Source of the DNA: Candidatus Melainabacteria bacterium
GTDB lineage: Bacteria > Cyanobacteriota > Vampirovibrionia > Vampirovibrionales > Vampirovibrionaceae
Reading direction: 5' to 3'
Assembly: GCA_050247195.1 (NCBI GenBank)
Contig: JBFWUP010000004.1
Location: forward strand, 64,537-128,536
DNA length: 64,000 nt
The notes beneath the pieces were generated by a model. That model was not told the DNA's origin and searched no databases. It saw only the letters and a list, made by a program, of their open reading frames with translations. Made by a program: the position numbers and the translations under genes. This document shows positions 2,492 through 41,066 of the stretch, in pieces (position 1 is the first letter of the stretch; each line of letters begins with the position of its first letter).

Positions 2492-3667
2492 ATGGCCACA
2501 GCCGGAATACGCCCGAATATTTACGCAGACCATGCGGCCACCACGCCCGTGGATCCGTTGGTGCTGGCGGCCATGCAGCCTTACCTCACCGATGATTTTG
2601 GGAACCCTTCCAGCCTGTACCGCCGGGGCAAAGCGGCGCGCAAGGCGCTGGAAGCCGCCCGGCAAACCCTGGCGGACTGCCTGAACACCCCGGCGGAAAC
2701 CCTGACGCTGACCGGCAGCGGCACCGAATCCGACAACCTGGCCATTCTCGGCGTGGCGCGCACGCTGGCCAACACAAGCGGCAGGCGGCATCTGATCGTC
2801 AGCGCCATTGAACACGCCGCCGTCCTGAACGCCGCCCGGCATCTGGAAGCCGAGGGCTGGACGCTGACCCTGCTGCCGGTCAATACTGACGGCGTGGTGT
2901 CGCTCAGTGACCTGGATGCCGCACTCCGGCCCGATACCGCCCTGGTGAGCGTGATGGCCGGCAACAACGAGGTGGGCAGCCTTCAGCCCGTTGAAGCCAT
3001 CGGCGCCCTGCTGCGGGAACGCGGCGTGCTGTTTCACACGGATGCCGTTCAGGTTTTTGGCAAGCTGCCGTTGGATCTGGCCACGCTCGCGGTGGATTAC
3101 CTGAGCGCCAGCGCGCATAAAATTTACGGCCCCAAGGGCATTGGCTTGCTGTACTGCCGCCCGGGCGCCCCCGCACCCACCCCGCTGGTATTTGGCGGCG
3201 GGCAGGAACAGGGTCTGCGCTCCGGGACGGAAAACGTGGCGGCCGCCGTGGGTTTTGCCGAAGCCGCCCGACTGGCCCATACCGCCATGGCGGAAGAAAC
3301 GCCGCGCCTGCGCCGGCTGCAGCAGCAGCTGATGGTGGCCATTGAGGCCCAGGTCCCTGGCGCCGTCATCAACGGCCCGCATGAGGTGGCCCTGCGCGTG
3401 CCCGGCAATGTGCATTGTTCGTTTCCGCCCGGCGAGGGCGAGGCGCTGGTTCTGCATCTGGATCTGGCGGGCATTGCGGCCTCCAGCGGGTCAGCCTGCC
3501 ACAGCGCGGTGATTGAACCGTCGCGCGTGCTGCTGGCGATGGGCAAAAGCGAGGCGGAAGCCCGCGCCACGGTCCGGTTTTCTCTGGGAAAATCCAACAC
3601 GGAAGCCGACATTCCTGTCATCGCCGCCGCCTGTGCGAAGGTGGTTACCCCCACCGGCTCAAGGTGA
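2492..3667 (+). CDS. Cysteine desulfurase (class V aminotransferase, NifS/IscS-like)
   Basis: It contains a PLP-lysine region (SASAHKIYGPKG) and the catalytic-cysteine loop SSGSACHS, over 391 aa. Confidence 0.85.
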   Translation: MATAGIRPNIYADHAATTPVDPLVLAAMQPYLTDDFGNPSSLYRRGKAARKALEAARQTLADCLNTPAETLTLTGSGTESDNLAILGVARTLANTSGRRHLIVSAIEHAAVLNAARHLEAEGWTLTLLPVNTDGVVSLSDLDAALRPDTALVSVMAGNNEVGSLQPVEAIGALLRERGVLFHTDAVQVFGKLPLDLATLAVDYLSASAHKIYGPKGIGLLYCRPGAPAPTPLVFGGGQEQGLRSGTENVAAAVGFAEAARLAHTAMAEETPRLRRLQQQLMVAIEAQVPGAVINGPHEVALRVPGNVHCSFPPGEGEALVLHLDLAGIAASSGSACHSAVIEPSRVLLAMGKSEAEARATVRFSLGKSNTEADIPVIAAACAKVVTPTGSR

Positions 3668-3692
3668 AGCAGAGAGACGCAGCCTGACAACA

Positions 3693-3815
3693 AAACCCTC
3701 TCCTCTCAGGAGAGGGTGGACTGCCGAAGGCAGGCCGGGTGAGGTCATGGAAGCGCTGACCGCAGCCCGTAAGAACCTCACCCCCCGGCCCCCTCTCCTC
3801 CATGAGGAGAGGGGG
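3693..3815. repeat. GC-rich palindromic REP-like repeats
   Basis: Two hairpins in the cysteine desulfurase-ruvB spacer (ccctctcctctcaggagaggg and ccccctctcctccatgaggagaggggg) belong to a family seen at at least six other sites in the window. Confidence 0.6.
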
Positions 3816-3877
3816 AGAACCCCACTCCACACCCGGCACTGCTTACGCTACAATGGGGCAAAGGGGACTGAGAGCGC

Positions 3878-4993
<1,116 letters not shown>

Positions 4994-5056
4994 ATGCATC
5001 GATGTTCACAATCGTGTATGCTGGGGGCATGCCAGAGATAACCGGGAGGACATGTT

Positions 5057-5263
5057 ATGGCTTCCAACGACCCTGCTGAACAGGCGGCCTTTTATCAGCA
5101 CCGTTCAGTTGAAGCACTGATTGCACAACAAAGGGTTCAGCCTGTTCAATCCCTAGAAGCGCTGCGCGGTGATTTCTGGCCGGAAGCGGAAAGCATGGAT
5201 GATTTCGTTGAGACGATCCGCCGCTGGCGGCAGGAAGGGACACCGGCTGAGGGGCTCCTGTGA
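5057..5263 (+). CDS. Type II antitoxin (VapB-like) paired with the downstream PIN toxin
   Basis: It is a 68-aa acidic protein whose stop overlaps the toxin start by 4 bp (GTGA). The sequence …DFWPEAESMDDFVETIRRWRQE… is typical of PIN-partner antitoxins. Confidence 0.6.
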   Translation: MASNDPAEQAAFYQHRSVEALIAQQRVQPVQSLEALRGDFWPEAESMDDFVETIRRWRQEGTPAEGLL

Positions 5264-5655
5264 GCGGAACGCTTCTGATCGACACCAACGTCATTTCATT
5301 TATTCTCAAGGGCGACACGCGGGCTGCACGTTATTCATCACAGTTGGTCGGAAACGCTCTGGCCATCTCGTTTATGACTCTGGCGGAGCTGGACCGCTGG
5401 GCAATTGCACATCGTTGGGGAGAGCGAAAAAAGGCGCAATTGGATCATTATCTGACTCAGTTTGTCGTGTTACCGGTGGATCGGTTACTCTGCGAACAAT
5501 GGGCGAAAGTCAGCGATCAGGCGGCCAGGGACGGAAAACCGATTCAATGTGCCGATGCATGGATAGCGGCAACCGCCATTCTTTATGACATTCCACTGGT
5601 GACGCACAACCCCAAGGATTTTAAGCACATTACCGGCTTAAAAATATTACATTAA
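5260..5655 (+). CDS. vapC: PIN-domain ribonuclease toxin VapC
   Basis: The N-terminus reads LLIDTNVISF and conserved acidic residues follow at …DAWIAATAI…PLVTHNPKDF…. Confidence 0.8.
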   Translation: MSGTLLIDTNVISFILKGDTRAARYSSQLVGNALAISFMTLAELDRWAIAHRWGERKKAQLDHYLTQFVVLPVDRLLCEQWAKVSDQAARDGKPIQCADAWIAATAILYDIPLVTHNPKDFKHITGLKILH

Positions 5656-5703
5656 TAGCAAAAAAAGCACTTGCTTTTGACATCGGTTCACTACAAGTGA
5701 GCG

Positions 5704-6138
5704 TCATTGACTTATGTCTTCCAATACTTTTTCCAGAAATTCTTGTGGGTGCTCTTTCGCTAATCTATTTCCATCAATCCCCCCACTCAATATGAAGAGA
5801 GCATTTAATGCAATACACCCATAAGACGAGATACCAAATGCAAGCAATAGCCATCCCAATGGATTTTTCAAGATTAGCATTACGCCACTAACAATAATCA
5901 ATATCAACCCACCAAGTATACTTTGCCAACCGAACCCCATTAACAAAGCACCGAAGATACGAAGTTCAATATTTGGTTGTATGAGAAATAATGCCCCAAA
6001 AATACCGACTAAACTCCGGTATTTGTATAGCTGACAATAAATCATGCGAAACAAATAAATAGAGGTATGTACTAACGTTGCTAAAACTAGCAAAATAAAA
6101 GCTGGTATAGCGAATATCATTGATAGTATCGATGACAA
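5704..6138 (-). CDS. Hypothetical 4-TM membrane protein in an AT-rich (about 38% GC) islet
   Basis: The 144-aa translation is strongly hydrophobic. Local GC is far below the window average, suggesting foreign origin. Confidence 0.5.
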   Translation of the reverse strand: MSSILSMIFAIPAFILLVLATLVHTSIYLFRMIYCQLYKYRSLVGIFGALFLIQPNIELRIFGALLMGFGWQSILGGLILIIVSGVMLILKNPLGWLLLAFGISSYGCIALNALFILSGGIDGNRLAKEHPQEFLEKVLEDISQ

Positions 6139-6265
6139 GTCGCAACTCCCAATAGTAGCTTATTACTGTTTGGATTATAGCAGCCGTTGTTTGAGAATGA
6201 GCCCTAGTGACGCGAACTCTCGCGTACCAAAAACTGCTTCAAAAGCTGCCCTAGAAATAGGTTGG

Positions 6266-31337: not shown

Positions 31338-31490
31338 CCCCCCCTTGCCGCCTCAGGACAACCCCCAGGCAGGGGTCTTTGCCAATCCCCCATGCTTATG
31401 CTACGCTCGTGCCTCTGTCAGGGTCCTCACTGTCTACCCCTGGCGTTGCGATATTGACGAGACCCTGTGTCCCATCTGGAGGTTGAACCC

Positions 31491-31952
31491 TTGAATACCT
31501 ATGAAATTGTCCTGATCCTCAAGCCCGTGGTGGACGGCGACAACATCGACAATAATATGCGAGTCGTCGAGAAATCTCTCGATACCCAGAAGGCCAAGAT
31601 TATCCGCCGCGAAAAACTGGGACGTCGTCGCCTCTCCCACGAGATCAACAAATATAAAGACGCCTTTTATATGTCTCTGGTGGTGGAAATGGACGCCGAC
31701 AAAGTCCAGGAATTCCGCCGCGACTGCCACCTGAGTGATGATGTGCTGCGCGTGATGGTGATCCGCCTGACCAAATTTGACCCCAACGCCGAGAGCCGTC
31801 GTTTCCGCACCGAACGGCCCGAGCGCGACGAGCGTGGTGACCGGGGTCCTCGCGGAGACCGGGGCGACCGGGGTCCGCGCCGTGATTTCGGCGATCGGGG
31901 CGACCGTCCGGATCGGGGCGACCGCCCGCCACGCGGACGCGTCTCGGCCTGA
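31491..31952 (+). CDS. rpsF: 30S ribosomal protein S6 with an Arg/Asp/Gly repeat C-terminal tail
   Basis: A GGAGG Shine-Dalgarno lies 8 nt before a TTG start. The product begins LNTYEIVLILKP… and ends in the tail …RGDRGPRGDRGDRGPRRDFGDRGDRPDRGDR. Confidence 0.85.
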   Translation: MNTYEIVLILKPVVDGDNIDNNMRVVEKSLDTQKAKIIRREKLGRRRLSHEINKYKDAFYMSLVVEMDADKVQEFRRDCHLSDDVLRVMVIRLTKFDPNAESRRFRTERPERDERGDRGPRGDRGDRGPRRDFGDRGDRPDRGDRPPRGRVSA

Positions 31953-32099: not shown

Positions 32100-32603
32100 A
32101 TGAGTCTGGCCAAGGCAACGGTAACCGGCATTCTGGCATCCGATCCGGAAAAGCGGTTTACGCCGAACAACCATGCAGTCACCACCTTTAACATCACGGT
32201 GGAAAATCCGCCTTTCGGCAAGCAGACGGCGCCCACTTTCTTCCAGGTTCGCATCACCTGCTGGCGCGGTTTGGCCGAAAGCGCCGAACAGATGCTGAAA
32301 AAAGGCGACGTGGTTCTGATTGACGGCAAACTGATCATCAACAGCTACCAGACACCCGAAGGGGTTCAGAAGCGCAACTATGAAGTGGAGGCCAATACGC
32401 TCCACAAACTCAGCGGATCACCCCAGGCAATTCAACCGGCTGTAGGTACCCCGGCTGCGGTTCAACCGGTTTCGGTTCAGGCTGGCTCTGTGCCCGCACA
32501 GCAGGCAACGGTTGCCGCCGCACCGGCCCAGTCTCCGGCTCAGGCGCCGGCCGGCAACTATGATTTTCTCTCCGACACCACGGAAGATGACATTCCGTTC
32601 TAA
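32100..32603 (+). CDS. ssb: Single-stranded DNA-binding protein
   Basis: It has an OB-fold N-domain, a Gln/Pro/Ala-rich linker and the acidic tip DDIPF. Confidence 0.9.
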   Translation: MSLAKATVTGILASDPEKRFTPNNHAVTTFNITVENPPFGKQTAPTFFQVRITCWRGLAESAEQMLKKGDVVLIDGKLIINSYQTPEGVQKRNYEVEANTLHKLSGSPQAIQPAVGTPAAVQPVSVQAGSVPAQQATVAAAPAQSPAQAPAGNYDFLSDTTEDDIPF

Positions 32604-32632
32604 CCTGCACAAACGGTAAAAGGTCCACAAAA

Positions 32633-32659
32633 AAGTCGCCGGAACCGGCGGCTTTTTTT
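32633..32659 (+). terminator. Intrinsic terminator after ssb
   Basis: The sequence cgccgg-aa-ccggcg is followed by gcTTTTTTT. Confidence 0.5.
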
Positions 32660-33174
32660 ATGAAAAAACTTCCCTGTCTGACGATCCGTTTTGATCAAAA
32701 AGTGATCTCCGGTCGGCACGCGGGGTCAAAGGATCTACTGCATCCGGAGGAGTGGGAGCAAACCCTTGCTCGGATTGTTTGCAGAAGGGTTCACCACACA
32801 TGCGCTTTGCTGAAACATGCATGGTGATTGCGTTTTACATGCCGTTCTTTAAAAAAAGCGATCGCTTTTTCCGCTTGAATACTCTCCACCAAAAACCGGA
32901 TAAATTCGGTAACGCCCCAATTTAGGCTCAAAAAGTATTGACCTATTTCAGAATTAATGCTTCACTGAGGTATATTTTGTTTATTGATGGAAGTGTTTTT
33001 CACAACTGTCAACCCATTTTCCGGAAGCAATTTTGAAAAATGTGGAAGCAAGATATGTGGAAGTACAGTTGGAGTTGTCTGTAACGTTTAGTGAGTCAAG
33101 ATGTGTCGAATGGGTAGGAATTTTTAGGTTAGTTTAGGTTACCCCTGGATTCAGTAATGTAAGGAGTCAGAACC
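32660..33174. promoter_or_regulatory. A 500-bp AT-rich non-coding leader upstream of the H1-like gene, carrying TGGAAG direct repeats
   Basis: It is the lowest-GC non-coding stretch in the window and contains no ORF. Direct repeats atgtggaag occur at about 33042 and 33057, and tgatggaagtg at about 32988. Confidence 0.4.
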
Positions 33175-33918
33175 TTGAAAACGACTGCGAAGAAAAAACC
33201 CGCTGCGAAGAAACCCGCAGCCAAGAAAACCACCAAGAAAGTGGCCGCCAAAAAGCCCACTGCCAAGAAAATGACCACCAAGAAAGTGGCTGCCAAGAAA
33301 CCGGCTGCTAAGAAAGCAACCAAAAAAGTAGTGGCCAAAAAGCCCGCTGCTAAGAAAACCGCAGCCAAGAAGCCCGTTGCTAAAAAAGCAACCACCAAAA
33401 AAGTGACGGCCAAGAAAACCGCCGCTAAAAAACCGGCTGCTAAAAAAGCAACCACCAAAAAAGTAGTGGCCAAAAAGCCCGCTGCTAAGAAACCGGCTGC
33501 CAAGAAAGCAACCAAAAAAGTAGTGGCCAAGAAAACCGCTGCTAAGAAACCGGTTGCCAAAAAGACTGCCGTAAAAAAAAAAGTAGTCTCTAAAACCGCT
33601 GCTAAAAAGCCACTCGCAAAAAAAAAAGTAGTGGCCAAAAAGCGCTCGGCTAATACGAAAACTGCCAGTAAAGCGGCAAAACCGGTCAACACCTTGTCCT
33701 CGCGGATTAAGGCGACGATCCAGGGTTTTGTGAACGCTCACCGTCAGTTCACCGCCAACGACATTTACGTGGAACTCGCGAAAACTGTCCGCGGCGTGAA
33801 CAAGCAGTCCGTCATCACGTCGGTGCTCAAGCAGATGAAAAGCAACTTCGCCACCGTTCGGGTCACCGAACGGGCGGGTGCAGGCCCCAGACCGGTCAAA
33901 CTGTACATTCCGGCCTGA
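33175..33918 (+). CDS. Histone H1-like lysine/alanine-rich nucleoid protein (KKPAAKK repeats) with a C-terminal globular domain
   Basis: An AAGGAG Shine-Dalgarno lies 9 nt before a TTG start. The N-terminal roughly 160 aa are tandem (A/T)KKPAAKK repeats, and the last roughly 80 aa are non-repetitive. Confidence 0.7.
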
Positions 33919-33951
33919 AACTGTACGAAAAATCGAGAGCCTGTCACTTCG

Positions 33952-35874
33952 GTGGCAGGCTCTTTTTTACGGGCCGGACCCTATAATGGGAAGGTGCCCT
34001 CATCTGTAACAACCCACCCACCCCTTACGCGCGATCAGGCCGGGCGCGGGTTTGAGACGGCCCTGAAACCAGGCCGCCGTAAGCAACAAGGCCAGCACTT
34101 CACACCGGATGCCCTGTGCGACTGGATGATTGGCATAGCTGATCTCCGCCCGGGAGACCGGATCCTTGACCCGGCCTGCGGGACGGGCGCCTTTTTGCTG
34201 CGCACGCGCGCCGCGCTGGAAACCATGGGCGTGCCCACTGCCGCCATGGCCAAACAGCTGTTGGGCATGGAGCTGGACCCTGAGGCGGCCACCCTGTGCC
34301 GTCAGCAACTGGCGTTCTCTGAAAACTCGGTTTTCACCGGGGATTTTCTCACCCAGACAGTCTGGCCGGAAAACGCGATTGATGTCATTCTGGGCAACCC
34401 ACCGTATGTACGTCAGGAGATCCGCACCGGAAAAGATCACGCTCCCCGTGAGCAATGCGGGTTTGAGGATTACCTGCAGCACCACCCGGATCAGCGCCGT
34501 CTGTTCGGTCGGAGCGCCGATCTGTACATCCGCTTTCTTATTGAAGCCACCCGGTTGCTGAAACCCGGCGGGCGGCTGGTCTTTGTGCTCAGCAACAGCT
34601 GGCTGAACACGGCGCTGGGCGAACAGCTGCTCCGGTTTCTGGCGCACCATTACCAACTCGGTCAGCTGGTGGAAACCACCGCCGAAGCCTGGTTCCCCGA
34701 TGCCGCCGTACGTCCGGTCATCCTCAGCGCCACCCGCCGGCCCGGCTGGCGTAATGACTTTAAGGAAGAGACCGTTCAGTGCGTCACCCTGAGCCAACCC
34801 TTGCGCCAGCTGCTGTCGGATCCAAAGGGCCAGCCCCCCACGGGAGACACCCGGGTCGTTTCGCTCTTCGATCTGATCGGTCGTCAGCACCACCAGCCGC
34901 TGGCCAGCCGGGCCAGTTTTCTGCTGCGGTGCCCGGAGGCACTGGCCCGTGCGCTGGCAGGCATCCGTGATGGCTTCGTTCCGCTGAGTACGCTCGCCGC
35001 CGTCCGCTATCCGGTCAAAACCGGCATCAACGCGTTTTTCTACGTTACGCCGGAGATCATCCGGCAATTTGGCATTGAGCCCGACTACCTGCTGCCCGTC
35101 CTTAAGTCCGCCCGGCAGGCCAGGGGTCTTGAGCTCAATCCGGCAGAATCCCCGATCATGCTTTTTCATTGCCCGCATCCGCCCGAATTACTGAGGAAAA
35201 AAAAGCATCAAGGCGCACTGGGCTATATCCACTGGGGGCGTGGGCAACTGGCGCCGGTCCGCCAGAAGCGGGATCGGGCAGTCCCCTGGCCGGAGGTCGC
35301 CTCGGTTCAGGGGCGGCCATACTGGTACCAGGTCCCAAAGCCCAACGCGTCTCAGCTGTTCGCCCCACGCTTCGTGGACCAATCCGCACGCTTTTTGATC
35401 AGTGACACTCCCATGGTCGCCGATCAGACGTTTTACACCCTGCATCCCCAATCAACCGACCGGGTCCTGCTGGCCGCACTCCTCAACACCAGCCTGACCC
35501 GGCTGCTGCTGGCCCTGAACGGACGCACCAGCCTCGGCGATGGGGTGCTGCAGTTCAGCCGCGAGGACATCGCCCGCCTGGCCGTACCCATGCCCTGCAA
35601 CTACCCGAAAACAGAAAAACAGGCCATCATGGAAGCCTTCGGGGCCCTGGCGGCCCGGCCAGACGAGACAGCTGCCCGCCACCTGCTGGACCGGGCGGTG
35701 CTGGCGCCCCTCTTCAGACAAGACTGGCAGGACATCCAGGCGATGATTCTGGTGACGCTTGAACAGCTGACCACCGAACGGCGGCGTCTGGCGCATCAGC
35801 GAAAACGCCTCCAAAAAGAAAACGGTAACCTGCTGACGCAAATTACCGCTGAAGAGAGAAAAGAGAGCGAGTGA
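33952..35874 (+). CDS. N6-adenine-specific DNA methyltransferase (gamma class, TaqI/Eco57I-like), apparently orphan
   Basis: It carries motif I (ILDPACGTGAFLL) and motif IV (ILGNPPYV). The 640-aa product has a long C-terminal putative TRD, and no restriction endonuclease gene lies adjacent. Confidence 0.8.
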   Translation: MAGSFLRAGPYNGKVPSSVTTHPPLTRDQAGRGFETALKPGRRKQQGQHFTPDALCDWMIGIADLRPGDRILDPACGTGAFLLRTRAALETMGVPTAAMAKQLLGMELDPEAATLCRQQLAFSENSVFTGDFLTQTVWPENAIDVILGNPPYVRQEIRTGKDHAPREQCGFEDYLQHHPDQRRLFGRSADLYIRFLIEATRLLKPGGRLVFVLSNSWLNTALGEQLLRFLAHHYQLGQLVETTAEAWFPDAAVRPVILSATRRPGWRNDFKEETVQCVTLSQPLRQLLSDPKGQPPTGDTRVVSLFDLIGRQHHQPLASRASFLLRCPEALARALAGIRDGFVPLSTLAAVRYPVKTGINAFFYVTPEIIRQFGIEPDYLLPVLKSARQARGLELNPAESPIMLFHCPHPPELLRKKKHQGALGYIHWGRGQLAPVRQKRDRAVPWPEVASVQGRPYWYQVPKPNASQLFAPRFVDQSARFLISDTPMVADQTFYTLHPQSTDRVLLAALLNTSLTRLLLALNGRTSLGDGVLQFSREDIARLAVPMPCNYPKTEKQAIMEAFGALAARPDETAARHLLDRAVLAPLFRQDWQDIQAMILVTLEQLTTERRRLAHQRKRLQKENGNLLTQITAEERKESE

Positions 35875-35893: not shown

Positions 35894-37108
35894 TCAGGCC
35901 GCCACACTGGGGTCAATAGCCCGATCCAGATAGATTCTGGCCTTGCTGGCCATTTCCGAGGCGTCAATGGTGCCGTCGCCATTCACATCACCACCGGAAT
36001 TCTGAGTGTAGGCCGCACCATCCGCCTGGGTATAAAACGCCACTGTGGGATTGGAGGCAACATCATCCAAATAGGCCGGGGCAAACACCACCGAGTAAGT
36101 GGCCGCCAGGGAGTTAATTTTGCCTTTGGCGCCGTTGTTTTCGAAGTATTTCTCCACAAAGGGCAGCTGGCTGATCGGATCCATCGTTGACAGCGCCTCG
36201 GTCGTGGTCCCTGAACTCTCTGCCGAAGAATCCATGAACTGAATCAGACCGGTGGCGCCGCTGTCCGGGTTAGACACGTTATAAATAAATCCGGCGGATT
36301 CAAAACCCATCACGGCAAGTATAAAATCGGGATCGCCACCGAGACGGGTGGCCATGGCCTGCACTTCATTGATGAAGGTTTTCACCTGCTGGTGAATTTC
36401 CTCATCGCTGCCCAGTTGTTTTTCGGCCGGCATCCGGCTGTTGGCCTCCTTAAAGCCGTTAAAAATCCAGTCTTCCCAATGCTCGGCGGTCAGCCTGCCG
36501 TCAAACTGGTGGGCATCGCCACCGGTTGCAGTCACGTCCGGCGCAGCTAACTGATCATCTGTGCCGTCATCCTGGGCGCTGTCGGGCTTATCATTTGAGG
36601 TAGATTCATCTTTCGGGATCTGAGCCGAAAGCGCGAGAATCTGATCCAGAATGCCGCCGCCACTGCCACCACCGGCCAGCGCAGACATCCCGCCGGCAGC
36701 GGAAGGCACCCCGCCACCACTCAGCATGTTGATGGCGCCCATCAGACTGCCAATCCCGGCCGAAATCTGCTGGCTCATCTCATACAAAGCTGCTGTCGGG
36801 TCCGTCGGCATACCGGGCATCAGCGGGGGAGACGCAAACATGCCCAGCAGATCCTGAGCGACAAACAGATCCCCGGCCGGCGCTGCCGAACCGAACGCTG
36901 ACCACTCAGCCGGCAGGGATGCCTGCGCCTGCTGTACGTTCAGCATTGCCTGAACCGCCTGCGGGCACGCACCAGATTGTGGGCAACCATTGATCATGCG
37001 TCTGAACGTCACTCCATCCAGAATCCACTGACACAGCAGCGATTCAACTGACTCCAACTCCGTTGCGGTGCGCGCCCGGGGCACGCGACTGTACTCCAAC
37101 TTTCCCAT
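35894..37108 (-). CDS. Hypothetical protein with Gly-rich region, SLT-like (…ATGLIQFM…) segment and a C-terminal dockerin/EF-hand-like GDVNGDGTIDASE motif
   Basis: The call rests on motif reading only. No signal peptide was recognised. Confidence 0.35.
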   Translation of the reverse strand: MGKLEYSRVPRARTATELESVESLLCQWILDGVTFRRMINGCPQSGACPQAVQAMLNVQQAQASLPAEWSAFGSAAPAGDLFVAQDLLGMFASPPLMPGMPTDPTAALYEMSQQISAGIGSLMGAINMLSGGGVPSAAGGMSALAGGGSGGGILDQILALSAQIPKDESTSNDKPDSAQDDGTDDQLAAPDVTATGGDAHQFDGRLTAEHWEDWIFNGFKEANSRMPAEKQLGSDEEIHQQVKTFINEVQAMATRLGGDPDFILAVMGFESAGFIYNVSNPDSGATGLIQFMDSSAESSGTTTEALSTMDPISQLPFVEKYFENNGAKGKINSLAATYSVVFAPAYLDDVASNPTVAFYTQADGAAYTQNSGGDVNGDGTIDASEMASKARIYLDRAIDPSVAA

Positions 37109-37248: not shown

Positions 37249-39225
37249 TTGCCCCTGACTGCCCCACAATCCATCCTGCTAGCCCAGCTGAACCCCACCC
37301 CCGGGGATCTGGCCGGCAACGCTCAGCTGATTCTTGAGGCGCTGCGTCACGGCGAAGAACACGGCGTCGGGCTTGTCGTCTCGCCTGAACTGGCGCTGAC
37401 CGGCTACCCCATCCTGGACGCGCTGATGCGTTTTCCGGATCTGGGTGAGCAGAATTTATTGTGGCTGGATGCCCTGGCCCGCAGAACGGGAGAAACCCAC
37501 CTGCTGGTGGGCTTCGTGGAGCCGCGCCGGGTCCAGGCAGGGGATCAGCGTATCGGCAATCCGTTTTTTAACAGCGTGGCCTGGCTGGGCGAAGGCAAGC
37601 TGCTGGGTATCATCCGCAAAAGCCTGCTGCCTTGTTACGAAGAACTGAACGACCCACGCATTTTCGAAGCGTCGCCGGCCATCGGGGTTCACCCGCCGGA
37701 CACCCTGGCCAATAGCCGGTGGGGTTTTCAGCAGCCGACCGGGTCGCCGGGCGTCGCCGTCATCCACGGCGTCCGCTACGGTGTCGTTATTTGTGAGGAC
37801 TCCTGGAACGACGATACGTTTATGGAAAACACACGGTATACGCACGATCCCAACACGGAAACCGCCGCACTGAAGCCGGATGTGATCATGAACCTGTCGG
37901 CTTCCCCCTCACGCATGCGCAAGGAACAACTCCGCCACCATATGCTCGCCCACATCGCCCGTCGGCACCGGCTGCCCCTGGTGTATGTCAACCAGGTGGG
38001 CGCCAATGATGAGATTATTTTTGACGGCGCCAGCCGGGCGTATGACGCCGACGGCGCACTCACCCACCGCGCCCGGGTCTTTGCCACCGATCGCCTCATT
38101 GTGACGCCCGCCTTGCCGGGCCGGGTGGAACCATTGCCCGAGGGTCAGGATGAAACGCTCTCGGATCCCCGGCAGTATCTTCCCGGCGATCCGCATGATC
38201 TGGGCCGGACTTACGCCGCCCTCACACTCGGCATTCGGGACTACTTCGCCAAAACCGGATTCCGTCGGGCGGTACTCGGGCTTTCCGGTGGACTGGATTC
38301 CACCGTGACCGCCGTATTGCTGGCCGATGCGCTGGGACCGGAGAATGTGCTGGGCGTCAGCATGCCGTCCACCCTCACCCCGGCCGAAAACCGGGACGAT
38401 GCCCGGCAGCTGGCTGAGAATCTGGGCATTCTGTTTGAGGAGATCCCCATTGCAGATGCCGTGGCGGCCCTGCAGACAGCCGGCCAGTCGATCAGCGGCG
38501 CTCTCAGCACACACTGGGGTGGCATGAACCCCCAATCCGCCGCACTGGAGAATGCGCAGGCCATCACCCGCGCCACAGTGTTGCGCGGCATCGGCAATGA
38601 TTATGACGCGCTGCCCATCGCCACCTCGGATAAATCGGAACTGATGATGGGCTACGCCACGGTGAACGGGGATATGTCCGGCGCCATTGCCCCACTGGCC
38701 GATGTGGTGAAAACCAAGGTGTTTGCCCTGGCCCGCTGGCTGAATGGACATCGCGAGCGCAGGAATGTCATTCCTCAGCGCATCATTGATCGCAAGCCCG
38801 GTGCAGACCTTCGCCGAAACGCGGAGACCGGAGAACTGGTGCATGCGGAAGAAGACCTGATGCCCTACCTGTTTCTCGATGAAATTATCTGGCGTGAAGA
38901 GAACATTCGCCAGACGATGAGCGACATGCTGACCGAGCGGTTTGCGTATGAAGACACCCACCCGCTTCCGTCGGAAGAAAAGCAAGCCTGGCTGGAGCGG
39001 TATTACTTCCGGCGCGACCGCCTCGGCGTCTTCAAGTGGAAGGTCGCCCCGCCGGCCCTCATTACTGACGCCCACGGCATCAACACGGCCACTTACGCGC
39101 AGTCGATCGTCACGCGCATCCACCACCCCGGCCATACACGGGCAGAGATCGAACAGATCCTGAACAGCACCGGTGCGCTGAATGCCTCTCGCCCTCTCCA
39201 TACAGGAGAGTATGCTGGGGGGTGA
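37249..39225 (+). CDS. nadE: Glutamine-dependent NAD+ synthetase (nitrilase domain plus NadE domain)
   Basis: It has an N-terminal CN-hydrolase domain and a C-terminal GLSGGLDSTV PP-loop, over 658 aa. Confidence 0.9.
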   Translation: MPLTAPQSILLAQLNPTPGDLAGNAQLILEALRHGEEHGVGLVVSPELALTGYPILDALMRFPDLGEQNLLWLDALARRTGETHLLVGFVEPRRVQAGDQRIGNPFFNSVAWLGEGKLLGIIRKSLLPCYEELNDPRIFEASPAIGVHPPDTLANSRWGFQQPTGSPGVAVIHGVRYGVVICEDSWNDDTFMENTRYTHDPNTETAALKPDVIMNLSASPSRMRKEQLRHHMLAHIARRHRLPLVYVNQVGANDEIIFDGASRAYDADGALTHRARVFATDRLIVTPALPGRVEPLPEGQDETLSDPRQYLPGDPHDLGRTYAALTLGIRDYFAKTGFRRAVLGLSGGLDSTVTAVLLADALGPENVLGVSMPSTLTPAENRDDARQLAENLGILFEEIPIADAVAALQTAGQSISGALSTHWGGMNPQSAALENAQAITRATVLRGIGNDYDALPIATSDKSELMMGYATVNGDMSGAIAPLADVVKTKVFALARWLNGHRERRNVIPQRIIDRKPGADLRRNAETGELVHAEEDLMPYLFLDEIIWREENIRQTMSDMLTERFAYEDTHPLPSEEKQAWLERYYFRRDRLGVFKWKVAPPALITDAHGINTATYAQSIVTRIHHPGHTRAEIEQILNSTGALNASRPLHTGEYAGG

Positions 39226-39297: not shown

Positions 39298-40881
39298 CTA
39301 ACTGACCGACTGAGGGACTTTCGGGCCGGCGGCCACCAGGTGATCCACACCGGAGAACTTGCGGAAGTTTTCCACAAACATCGCCGCCAGTTTGGCCGCC
39401 TGCTGATCGTAGGCTTCCTTGTCCGCCCAGCTGCTGCGCGGGTCAAGAATTCCAGCCGGCACGCCCGGGCAGGCGGTGGGCACCAGAATGTTGAAGACCG
39501 GGTGGGTCACAAATTCCTGGGCTTCCAGCGTGCCATCCAGCGCGGCAGTCACCATGGCGCGGGTATGGGGAATGCTGACACGGCTGCCCACACCATAGGG
39601 GCCACCCTGCCAACCGGTGTTAATGAGGTACACGTTGGCCTGATGTTCGGCAATGCGTTTGGCCAGCATGCCGGCGTACACGGCCGAAGGCCGGGGCATA
39701 AAGGGTTCGCCGAAACAGGTGGAGAAAGCCGCCACCGGCTCGGTGATGCCGCGCTCTGTCCCCGCCAGCTTGCTGGTGTACCCGCTGATGAAGTGATACT
39801 GTGCCTGCTCAGCTGTCAGCTTGGCGATGGGGGGCAGCACCCCGAAAGCGTCTGCGGTCAGAAAAATCACCGTGGACGGGTGGCCCGCCATCCCTTTCAC
39901 ATCCGCATTGGGAATGTAATCCACCGGGTAGCCCACGCGGGAATTTTCCGTCAGGCGGGCGTCATCGTAATCAAACGAGCCATCGGCGCGCATCACAATG
40001 TTCTCGGCCAGCGCGCCATGGCGGATGGCGTTCCAGATTTCCGGCTCGTTTTCTCTGGAGAGCTTGATGGCCTTGGCGTAACAGCCGCCCTCAAAATTAA
40101 ACACGCCGTGATCCGACCAGCCATGCTCGTCGTCGCCAATCAGCACCCGGTTGGGATCAGCGGAGAGGGTGGTCTTGCCGGTGCCGGACAACCCGAAGAA
40201 GAGAGCGGACCGACCATCTTTGCCCACATTGCATGAGCAGTGCATGGGGAAGACATTGCGCTCGGGCATCAGATAGTTCATCACCGAGAAGATGCCTTTT
40301 TTCATTTCGCCCGAGTACTGGGTGGCGGCAATGAGGACCAGTTTGCGTTCAAAGTTCAGCAGCACGGCCGCTTCGGAGTTCGTGCCTTCTTTCGCGGCAT
40401 CCAGCAGTAAATCCGGCACGGCAATCACGGTGAATTCCGGCGCGAAAGTTTTGAGCTGTTCCGCCGTGGGGCGGATAAACAACTGGTGAACAAACAGATT
40501 TTGCGAGGCCAGCGTGTTGATAAAACGGACCGGCATGGCGTACTGCGGATCGGCACCACAGTAACCGTCAAACACAAAAAGGTCTCTGTCCTGAATGTGG
40601 GCCTGAATGCGGGCATACACCCGGTCAAACACCTCGGTGCTGATGGGCTTGTTGACCTTGCCCCAGTGCACCTGATCATGCACATCCGGCGTATCCACAA
40701 TAAAACGGTCGTTGGGCGAGCGGCCGGTGTACTTGCCGGTTTCCACGGCAAGCGCGCCGTTGTCGGCCAGTCTGCCTTCGCCGCGGGTCACGGCTTCTTT
40801 CACAAGGTCATCCACGGACCACTGGTAATGCTGGGCGCCCTCATGGTTCAGGCCGAGATGGGATAAATAATGGGTAGGCAT
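39298..40881 (-). CDS. pckA: Phosphoenolpyruvate carboxykinase (ATP)
   Basis: It has a Walker A motif (GLSGTGKTTLS) and the PEPCK-ATP signature. The start was taken at MPTHYL; the ORF extends to a TTG at 40914. Confidence 0.9.
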   Translation of the reverse strand: MPTHYLSHLGLNHEGAQHYQWSVDDLVKEAVTRGEGRLADNGALAVETGKYTGRSPNDRFIVDTPDVHDQVHWGKVNKPISTEVFDRVYARIQAHIQDRDLFVFDGYCGADPQYAMPVRFINTLASQNLFVHQLFIRPTAEQLKTFAPEFTVIAVPDLLLDAAKEGTNSEAAVLLNFERKLVLIAATQYSGEMKKGIFSVMNYLMPERNVFPMHCSCNVGKDGRSALFFGLSGTGKTTLSADPNRVLIGDDEHGWSDHGVFNFEGGCYAKAIKLSRENEPEIWNAIRHGALAENIVMRADGSFDYDDARLTENSRVGYPVDYIPNADVKGMAGHPSTVIFLTADAFGVLPPIAKLTAEQAQYHFISGYTSKLAGTERGITEPVAAFSTCFGEPFMPRPSAVYAGMLAKRIAEHQANVYLINTGWQGGPYGVGSRVSIPHTRAMVTAALDGTLEAQEFVTHPVFNILVPTACPGVPAGILDPRSSWADKEAYDQQAAKLAAMFVENFRKFSGVDHLVAAGPKVPQSVS

Positions 40882-41066
40882 GGCTTGGATCTCTGTGTTT
40901 GATAAATGGATCAAAGACGCCGGCGGTCTTTCTGATGTGTGAATGCATCAAACCGGAAATGGGCGGGTCGGTGCGGGCGACACGACACATTCAAGCATAA
41001 ACGTGGAGGCAGATAAACCCCTCAAACGGCCAATAGACGGGCTTTACTCCCTCCCACCCCGCCGGA

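Follow-up and report, generated by a model that had tools for sequence, protein, structure and literature searches.

The stretch described here (the window, 64,000 nt in all) comes from a Vampirovibrionales (Melainabacteria) metagenome-assembled genome (MAG), and the relatives referred to below are Vampirovibrionales genomes, including that of Vampirovibrio chlorellavorus NCIMB 11383. It carries a gene for a 247-aa lysine-rich protein, for which the working name X is used, and a gene on the same strand for a predicted solitary N6-adenine DNA methyltransferase (the methylase). X represents a new family built on a known theme, that of a histone H1-like tail joined to a folded DNA-binding domain. 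Its most likely role is that of an abundant nucleoid-associated or architectural protein, and the locus of X and the methylase would lie in a block of the Vampirovibrionales core genome that is inherited vertically. This explanation, taken as a whole, is put forward with moderate confidence.

The favoured explanation can be outlined as follows. X would be a lineage-specific DNA-binding protein in which a C-terminal winged helix gives the folded DNA contact, and a basic linker binds DNA non-specifically through its charge, in the manner of an H1 tail or an AT-hook. The linker of Vampirovibrio proper is short, with RGRP-type motifs resembling AT-hooks; in the genome of the window it would have grown by tandem duplication to about 150 aa of AKK pentapeptides, with loss of an N-terminal motif. 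Transcription of X would start at a conserved promoter of sigma-70-like type, about 237 bp 5′ of the gene, and end at a strong intrinsic terminator. The methylase would probably be made at a low level, from transcripts that read through this terminator or from a weak promoter in front of its own gene. On the simplest reading of the locus, X is strongly expressed and has its own terminator, and a low level of read-through reaches the methylase.

The X open reading frame (ORF) begins with a TTG codon, and the same 247-aa product is present at NCBI (assembly GCA_050182425.1). An initial annotation of this DNA had proposed a TTG start with a good Shine-Dalgarno sequence, and this is borne out: AAGGAG at positions 33162–33167 lies 7 nt 5′ of the TTG, and there is an in-frame stop at 33160, 15 nt 5′ of the start. 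The repeats begin right at the start of the ORF. What had been described as an H1-like protein with KKPAAKK-type repeats indeed contains a real, degenerate tandem array; TRF detects a 15-nt unit about 25 times, which is translated into pentapeptides of the (A/P/T/V)-A-K-K type, and there is a higher-order repeat with a 60-nt unit (3.6 copies, 84% identity). In the protein, the repeats occupy aa 1 to about 160 and the winged helix aa 169–247. The Pfam HC2 profile (PF07382) matches X with 91.5 bits (cut-off 40). The NCBIfam Hc2 model (NF038052) gives 49.3 bits, below its cut-off of 135, and the NCBIfam model of Burkholderia H1-like proteins gives 50.9 bits, below its cut-off of 80.

A non-repetitive domain of roughly 80 aa had been noted at the C-terminal end, and it is present and predicted to be folded. 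It comprises about 75 aa, with 50–68% identity to close family members, and a profile search with it among 1.84 billion proteins yields 57 representatives with E-values of 1e-45 to 1e-4. The domain sits C-terminally in 54 of 55 short family proteins. By word-indexed search, the last 79 aa of X have a single homologue among 5.8 billion proteins. One member of the family is annotated at NCBI as a "hypothetical protein", and the family as delimited by these searches is unnamed and appears confined to Vampirovibrionales.

Members of the family are built from three parts: an N-terminal MPITFDxLxELxxF motif that spans about 20 aa, a basic linker that differs widely in length and composition, and the C-terminal winged helix. 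The third helix (13 residues) and the GPRPVK wing are nearly invariant in close relatives. The window copy of X has the C-terminal domain with both of these elements, and it is found where the family is expected, after rpsF and ssb and behind the promoter-like block TTGACC-N17-TTCACT, with rpsR absent. A profile of the N-terminal motif gives no match in the six frames of 32401–33400, and no copy hidden upstream or in another frame was thus found. The X of the window reads as a shortened copy, in which the N-terminal motif was lost and the linker grew to about 25 AKK-type pentapeptide repeats. Placement of the repeat domain at the N-terminus, as first proposed, is correct for the window copy only; in the family at large they make up the linker in the middle of the protein, after the conserved N-terminal motif. 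In V. chlorellavorus the linker is short, with KKRGRKPG/KRGPKPK motifs and sub-threshold matches to Pfam AT_hook. Expansion of the linker by AKK-type repeats is seen in several lineages, the window included, and the longest array (291 aa) is found in the L013/L014 lineage (loci are given by L numbers).

An AlphaFold2 (AF2) model of the C-terminal domain, based on a 47-sequence alignment, has a pLDDT of 91.9 and the topology H-H-H-E-E. Foldseek comparison of the domain with the PDB returns solely winged-helix DNA-binding domains (best E-value 0.016, TM-scores 0.5–0.7), among them those of Hop2, Fur/PerR, PadR/LmrR, MecI, RPC34, TFIIE and forkhead proteins. No Pfam family scores above threshold for the domain. 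The Pfam family DUF7669 recurs as a sub-threshold match in 26 of the 47 winged-helix domains (best E-value 6e-4, 17–19 bits vs a cut-off of 23), examples being P0117, P0126 and L022 5740–6228. Perhaps the X winged helix is remotely related to this uncharacterised family. DUF7669 and AT_hook were both considered as the identity of the X family and set aside, as the matches in its members are below threshold.

Bacterial H1-like lysine-rich proteins include Hc2 of Chlamydia and AlgP of Pseudomonas (PMC2848022, PMC9239181). X resembles Hc2 (HctB), AlgP and BpH1 in having tandem lysine/alanine-rich pentapeptides whose number varies between lineages; the number of repeats in Hc2 is also variable (PMC2848022). 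Hc2 and AlgP, however, have no folded winged helix, and it is the winged helix that is the conserved part of the X family, the repeats being an expandable linker. Other parallels are proteins that combine a folded DNA-binding domain with an H1-like tail, i.e. mycobacterial HupB and Ku, Deinococcus HU and Streptomyces DdbA (PMC3643593, PMC3553676, PMC11194088). As in these proteins, X consists of a folded domain and a PAKKA/AKK low-complexity tail that would add non-specific DNA affinity, and in DdbA and Deinococcus HU the basic region is N-terminal as it is in X (PMC3643593, PMC3553676, PMC11194088). X differs in its folded part, which is not a HU, Ku or DksA partner but a winged helix that is unclassified and belongs to no Pfam family.

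Like eukaryotic H1/H5, X joins a winged helix to a long tail rich in lysine, alanine and proline. The tail precedes the winged helix in X, unlike in H1/H5, and the reversed domain order pointed out in the initial annotation is therefore correct. Pfam Linker_histone gives no match at E ≤ 10 with the window domain or at E ≤ 1 with 47 family members, and there is no H1/H5 chain in the best 50 Foldseek matches of the domain. By sequence profile and modelled fold, the resemblance to H1/H5 appears to be one of convergence and not of homology.

The second gene of the locus had been taken to encode a 640-aa gamma-class methyltransferase with DPACGTGAF and NPPY motifs. The class and both motifs are confirmed, but the length is not. 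The start of the 640-aa ORF, GTG 33952, falls within the stem of an intrinsic terminator, and the start is most likely GTG 33994, which gives 626 aa and is favoured by the NCBI call and by the "MP..." N-termini of several orthologues. Motif I (DPACGTGAF) is at 34168–34194 (aa 59–67) and motif IV (NPPY) at 34396–34407 (aa 135–138), followed by a C-terminal recognition region. Pfam matches are to N6_Mtase (63.5 bits) and Eco57I (54.7 bits), and the NCBI record carries M_Eco57I_C. The closest solved structures are M.BseCI (1e-15) and M.TaqI (2e-14), which cover the catalytic domain only. From these features the product is predicted to be a gamma-class N6-adenine DNA methyltransferase.

About 28 orthologue clusters of the methylase were found, with 35–42% identity, and the E-value drops from 1e-87 to 1e-49 on passing to distant homologues. 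Among 17 orthologues the catalytic residues are invariant. Pairwise identity is 50% in the catalytic domain and 55% in the C-terminal target-recognition region (aa 326–540). That the C-terminal region is at least as conserved as the catalytic domain suggests one target sequence throughout the lineage, and with it a housekeeping or epigenetic use of the predicted methylation rather than restriction.

The proposal that the enzyme has no partner nuclease is strengthened. Domain scans of the window reveal no nuclease gene within about 10 kb on either side of the methylase, and none stands beside it in 16 further syntenic loci, including that of V. chlorellavorus NCIMB 11383. The methylase itself matches no nuclease family, and an N-terminal nuclease domain would not fit ahead of motif I, which starts at aa 59 of 626. 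Alignment with the PADLOC Type IIG model is limited to aa 336–566, in the C-terminal region, and the protein does not have the make-up of a Type IIG fusion. Nor is it a MADS MAD2 protein by the NCBIfam model, which gives 55.5 bits vs a cut-off of 720.

Methylases of the M.TaqI, M.BseCI and M.Eco57I types show the same order of motif I, NPPY and C-terminal recognition domain. They have cognate nucleases, whereas the window methylase is solitary, vertically conserved and situated in a housekeeping block. Solitary methylases that are found throughout a lineage are of a known kind, represented by Dam, CcrM and the cyanobacterial DmtA-D. The window methylase would resemble them in its clade-wide presence, its core context and the lack of a nuclease partner at the locus. 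It differs from Dam (alpha) and CcrM (beta) in belonging to the gamma class, and it is not universal, three lineages having X with no methylase beside it.

The region upstream of X was at first regarded as a 500-bp AT-rich leader, the longest and lowest-GC non-coding stretch of the window and a candidate site for curved DNA or regulator binding. The gap between ssb and X has a GC content of 0.43 vs 0.60 for the window, and it is the ORF-free gap of lowest GC and probably the longest. DNA of lower GC does exist (e.g. the 300-bp stretch 5858–6157), but it is coding. The leader does not hold up as one regulatory unit, as it resolves into the ssb terminator, a spacer, a promoter-like block and a 5′ untranslated region (5′UTR) of about 200 nt. 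The predicted ssb terminator, with its A-tract, GC stem and U-tract, can act in both directions.

Alignment of the upstream regions of relatives shows conserved AAAAAGTATTGACCT..AATTAATGATTCACT, within a wider conserved stretch at about 32930–32980. The pattern TTGACC-N17-TTCACT occurs once in the window (0.02 expected), and in 13 distinct relatives it is present exactly once per locus and always 5′ of X. A consensus scan also places a promoter-like site here, at 32947–32976. The distance from the block to the start of X is 237 bp in the window and 110–140 bp in relatives. With the promoter-like block this far upstream, the real 5′UTR would be about 200 nt long. Its computed fold is not unusually structured (z = +0.26), and Rfam, searched with the leader at gathering and E-value thresholds, finds no family, the near-matches being terminator-like and below threshold. 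A riboswitch, small RNA or structured leader was rejected on these two results.

Neither of the regulatory ideas first put forward for the leader is supported. The sequence TGGAAG is present on the + strand in three copies (32988, 33043 and 33058), all in the 5′UTR; about 0.6 would be expected from the window-wide frequency, a weak excess. Two copies of ATGTGGAAG are found 15 bp apart. Relatives have no TGGAAG repeats in the corresponding region, and the matches to ATGGAAGG there represent the end of rpsR; a role as a regulator site was therefore rejected. With regard to curvature, the AA/TT helical phasing of the whole leader is reached by 114 of 300 shuffles and that of the promoter-plus-UTR part by 151 of 300, so that the 10–11-bp periodicity is not above that of shuffled sequences overall and curved DNA is not indicated. 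A weak signal is confined to the spacer, where 8 of 300 shuffles reach the observed value, with no correction for the three tests made.

In relatives the usual order is rpsF-ssb-rpsR-X, with a sigma-70 gene before X in some. rpsR is found between ssb and X at 4622–4843 in L003, at 4876–5100 in L006 and at about 5179–5400 in L022, and it is missing from this position in L013 and L014 also. In the window, no significant match to rpsR (S18) is present among the matches listed, and a search restricted to the leader gave weak segments. The ORF 32660–32827 contains an S18-like segment, RIVCRRVHHTCA (vs KILPRRITGTCA), at the expected position and in the expected orientation; the S18 profile score is 1.3 bits, and 21 of 300 shuffles are as good. 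An rpsR pseudogene in the leader is thus unproven. In L004 the gene between rpsR and X (3574–4578) belongs to the sigma-70 family, and in L010 a similarly sized gap is present between these two genes.

The methylase gene had been said to follow X directly, at a spacing of 34 bp. With the start at 33994 the gap is 75 nt, and a strong intrinsic terminator is located in it. The stem is formed by AGAGCCUGUCAC-UUCG-GUGGCAGGCUCU, followed by U5, and the 78-nt intergenic stretch folds with -33.9 kcal/mol (z = -4.5). Hairpin-plus-U sites are found 3′ of X in 14 of the 17 loci that have the methylase (the window and 13 of the 16 others). In L006 the start of the methylase abuts the U-tract of the X terminator, and expression by read-through is implied. 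In the window, the TATAAT hexamer just 5′ of the methylase might be the -10 element of a weak leaderless promoter with no good -35, although this is speculative.

X is followed by the methylase in 17 of 20 informative lineages. The two genes are on the same strand in 17 distinct loci (the window, L002, L003, L004, L006, L009, L010, L011, L015, L016, L018-L022, L025 and L026), X has no methylase after it in three lineages (L013/L014, L023 and L024), and L008 is uninformative because of contig ends. The gene after the methylase varies, being pilM-like in L002, purD in L026 and nadE elsewhere. In the lineages that have no methylase at this position, X is followed by a gene for a 643-aa polytopic membrane protein in L013/L014, by nadE in L023 and by a FliI-type ATPase gene in L024. 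The 643-aa gene (L013 4594–6525, L014 6367–8298) has no Pfam match. It was considered as a degenerate methylase and rejected, as profile comparison gives E = 0.57 and the product is a polytopic membrane protein. A syntenic block extends across Vampirovibrionales and consists of genes for an M23 peptidase, a cupin and an M10-like protein, then rpsF, ssb, (rpsR), X, the methylase and nadE. Since this block is syntenic throughout, adjacency of X and the methylase alone is weak evidence of a link.

Several observations weigh against the explanation outlined above. The HC2 match appears to be compositional, because the NCBIfam equivalog cut-offs are missed; the start signals of the window methylase are poor (a GTG with GGGAAG abutting); the near-invariant third helix of X resembles a specific interface more than a generic nucleoid binder; and a palindrome by the promoter block in the Vampirovibrio clade hints at specific regulation. 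X could instead be a sequence-specific transcription factor, possibly an autorepressor, whose winged helix reads an operator while the linker merely raises affinity. In addition to the near-invariance of the third helix and wing across the family, the DNA-binding domains of the Fur/PerR, PadR and MecI repressors are among the closest folds, and the palindrome, of the form ATATATC-N4-GATATAT, is conserved and operator-like. It reads ATATATC-AGAC-GATATAT and is directly 3′ of the X promoter block in L006 (5345–5375), L011, L015 and L018-L022 (alignment A5, columns ~52–78). However, it is missing from L003, L004 and L008, and mostly so from the window, despite an intact X. The window X also has no ligand-binding or obvious dimerisation domain, and lysine-rich expansions of 100–150 aa typify proteins that bind DNA in bulk, as do Hc2, AlgP and the tail of HupB (PMC2848022, PMC9239181). 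A transcription factor is considered unlikely.

Functional coupling of X and the methylase is unproven. The DpnI winged helix and GcrA are readers of N6-methyladenine (m6A), and X and the methylase might similarly form a functional module in which X reads m6A, or recruits or regulates the enzyme, with methylation coupled to nucleoid structure. The same-orientation adjacency in 17 loci despite differing downstream neighbours speaks for this, as does the arrangement in L006, where transcription must pass through X to reach the methylase, and no methylase of the Vampirovibrionales clade was seen without X upstream. Yet the whole block from the M23 peptidase to nadE is syntenic, so that the two genes may be neighbours merely by descent, there is usually a terminator between them, X persists where the methylase is lacking (L013/L014, L023 and L024), and neither DpnI nor any other m6A reader is among the best 50 Foldseek matches. 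Such a module is improbable. Somewhat more doubtful still is its strictest form, with X as a dedicated partner that reads m6A or targets the enzyme, so that the H1-like linker would compact the nucleoid locally according to the state of methylation. The pairing of a nucleoid protein with the methylase put forward in the initial annotation is possible, given the conserved adjacency, but it is weakened by the general synteny, the terminators and the three lineages in which the methylase is lacking. The methylase could also be part or a remnant of a restriction–modification or defence system whose partner is encoded elsewhere. Eco57I-type and Type IIG enzymes are relatives of its family, as is, weakly, MADS MAD2, and a distant homologue from another organism, in L027 (P0035, 5001–6932, ~31% identical), shares 4 nt with the end of a 480-aa gene upstream of it (3562–5004), in the manner of a classical restriction–modification pair. 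But the context is housekeeping, the GC content of 0.61–0.65 is typical of the genome, the gene is conserved vertically, at 36–42% identity, alongside its neighbours, none of the 17 loci has a nuclease domain or a nuclease neighbour, and the MAD2 score is far below the cut-off. Membership in such a system is very improbable. The 480-aa gene of L027 has no Pfam or PADLOC match and may be an unclassified restriction endonuclease; with a distant homologue so arranged, the Vampirovibrionales clade may represent a domesticated solitary enzyme.

With X read as an architectural protein and the methylase as a solitary, clade-wide enzyme, several points are of interest. The X family is a predicted DNA-binding family, thus far unannotated, in the non-photosynthetic sister lineage of Cyanobacteria. 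It would represent an independent combination of winged helix and H1-type tail, and it offers a natural example of the expansion and contraction of a tail on a folded scaffold. The motif of the methylase should be readable directly from long-read data of V. chlorellavorus. The finding is of value for the new family that it delimits, for the conserved promoter element and for a prediction on the Vampirovibrio methylome that can be tested directly. If X and the methylase work together, they would provide a simple model for the coupling of DNA methylation to nucleoid organisation, and a dedicated partnership would mean that Vampirovibrionales have conserved a bacterial module of two genes, a "writer plus chromatin-reader" pair; if they do not, theirs is an ordinary conserved gene order. 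Searches that combined Vampirovibrio with histone, nucleoid or methyltransferase found no literature on either gene.

Table. Features of the X–methylase locus and its flanks in the window, in order of position
Feature	Position	Strand	Basis or remark
rpsF	31467-31952	+	
ssb	32100-32603	+	
ssb-X intergenic stretch, 571 bp	32604-33174		
ssb intrinsic terminator: A-tract, 13-bp GC stem, U-tract	32629-32658	+	inverted repeat I2; surrounding fold -19.1 kcal/mol, z = -2.9
AT-rich spacer, ~275 bp, no recognisable gene	32661-32937	.	rpsR position in most relatives
Promoter-like block TTGACC-N17-TTCACT, TG before TTCACT	32938-32966	+	aligned across 13 relatives
Inferred 5′UTR, ~200 nt	32973-33174	+	5′ end inferred from promoter block
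Gene X: 247-aa lysine-rich winged-helix protein, N-terminally shortened family member (predicted)	33175-33918	+	
X repeat region	33192-33624	+	TRF; Pfam HC2 91.5 bits
C-terminal winged-helix domain of X (predicted)	33679-33915	+	AF2 pLDDT 91.9; Foldseek; family conservation
X intrinsic terminator: 12-bp stem, UUCG loop, U-tract	33936-33970	+	fold computed; hairpin 33936-33963
TATAAT hexamer, 6 nt 5′ of methylase start	33982-33987	+	read from sequence; absent from consensus-scan output
Methylase: predicted solitary gamma-class N6-adenine DNA methyltransferase, 626 aa	33994-35874	+	
SLT-domain gene	35894-37108	-	
nadE	37249-39225	+	
pckA	39298-40914	-	

Two of the loci with the full rpsF-ssb-rpsR-X-methylase block, L009 (DATNQC010000098.1) and L011 (DATNPJ010000058.1), come from MAGs titled Oculatellaceae and Coleofasciculaceae cyanobacterium, respectively. 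Mislabelling or contamination of these bins is the probable reason.

Between the methylase and nadE the window has an SLT lytic-transglycosylase ORF of 404 aa (350 aa in the NCBI call) with glycine-rich stretches. None of the relatives examined has an SLT-domain gene here, which points to a lineage-specific insertion. GC is lowest in the window, at 0.35–0.40, in a coding island (about 5260–6140) with a PIN-domain VapC-like ORF (5260–5655, + strand) and a 144-aa membrane ORF (5704–6138, - strand); this DNA probably represents a small island of foreign origin or a toxin-antitoxin remnant.

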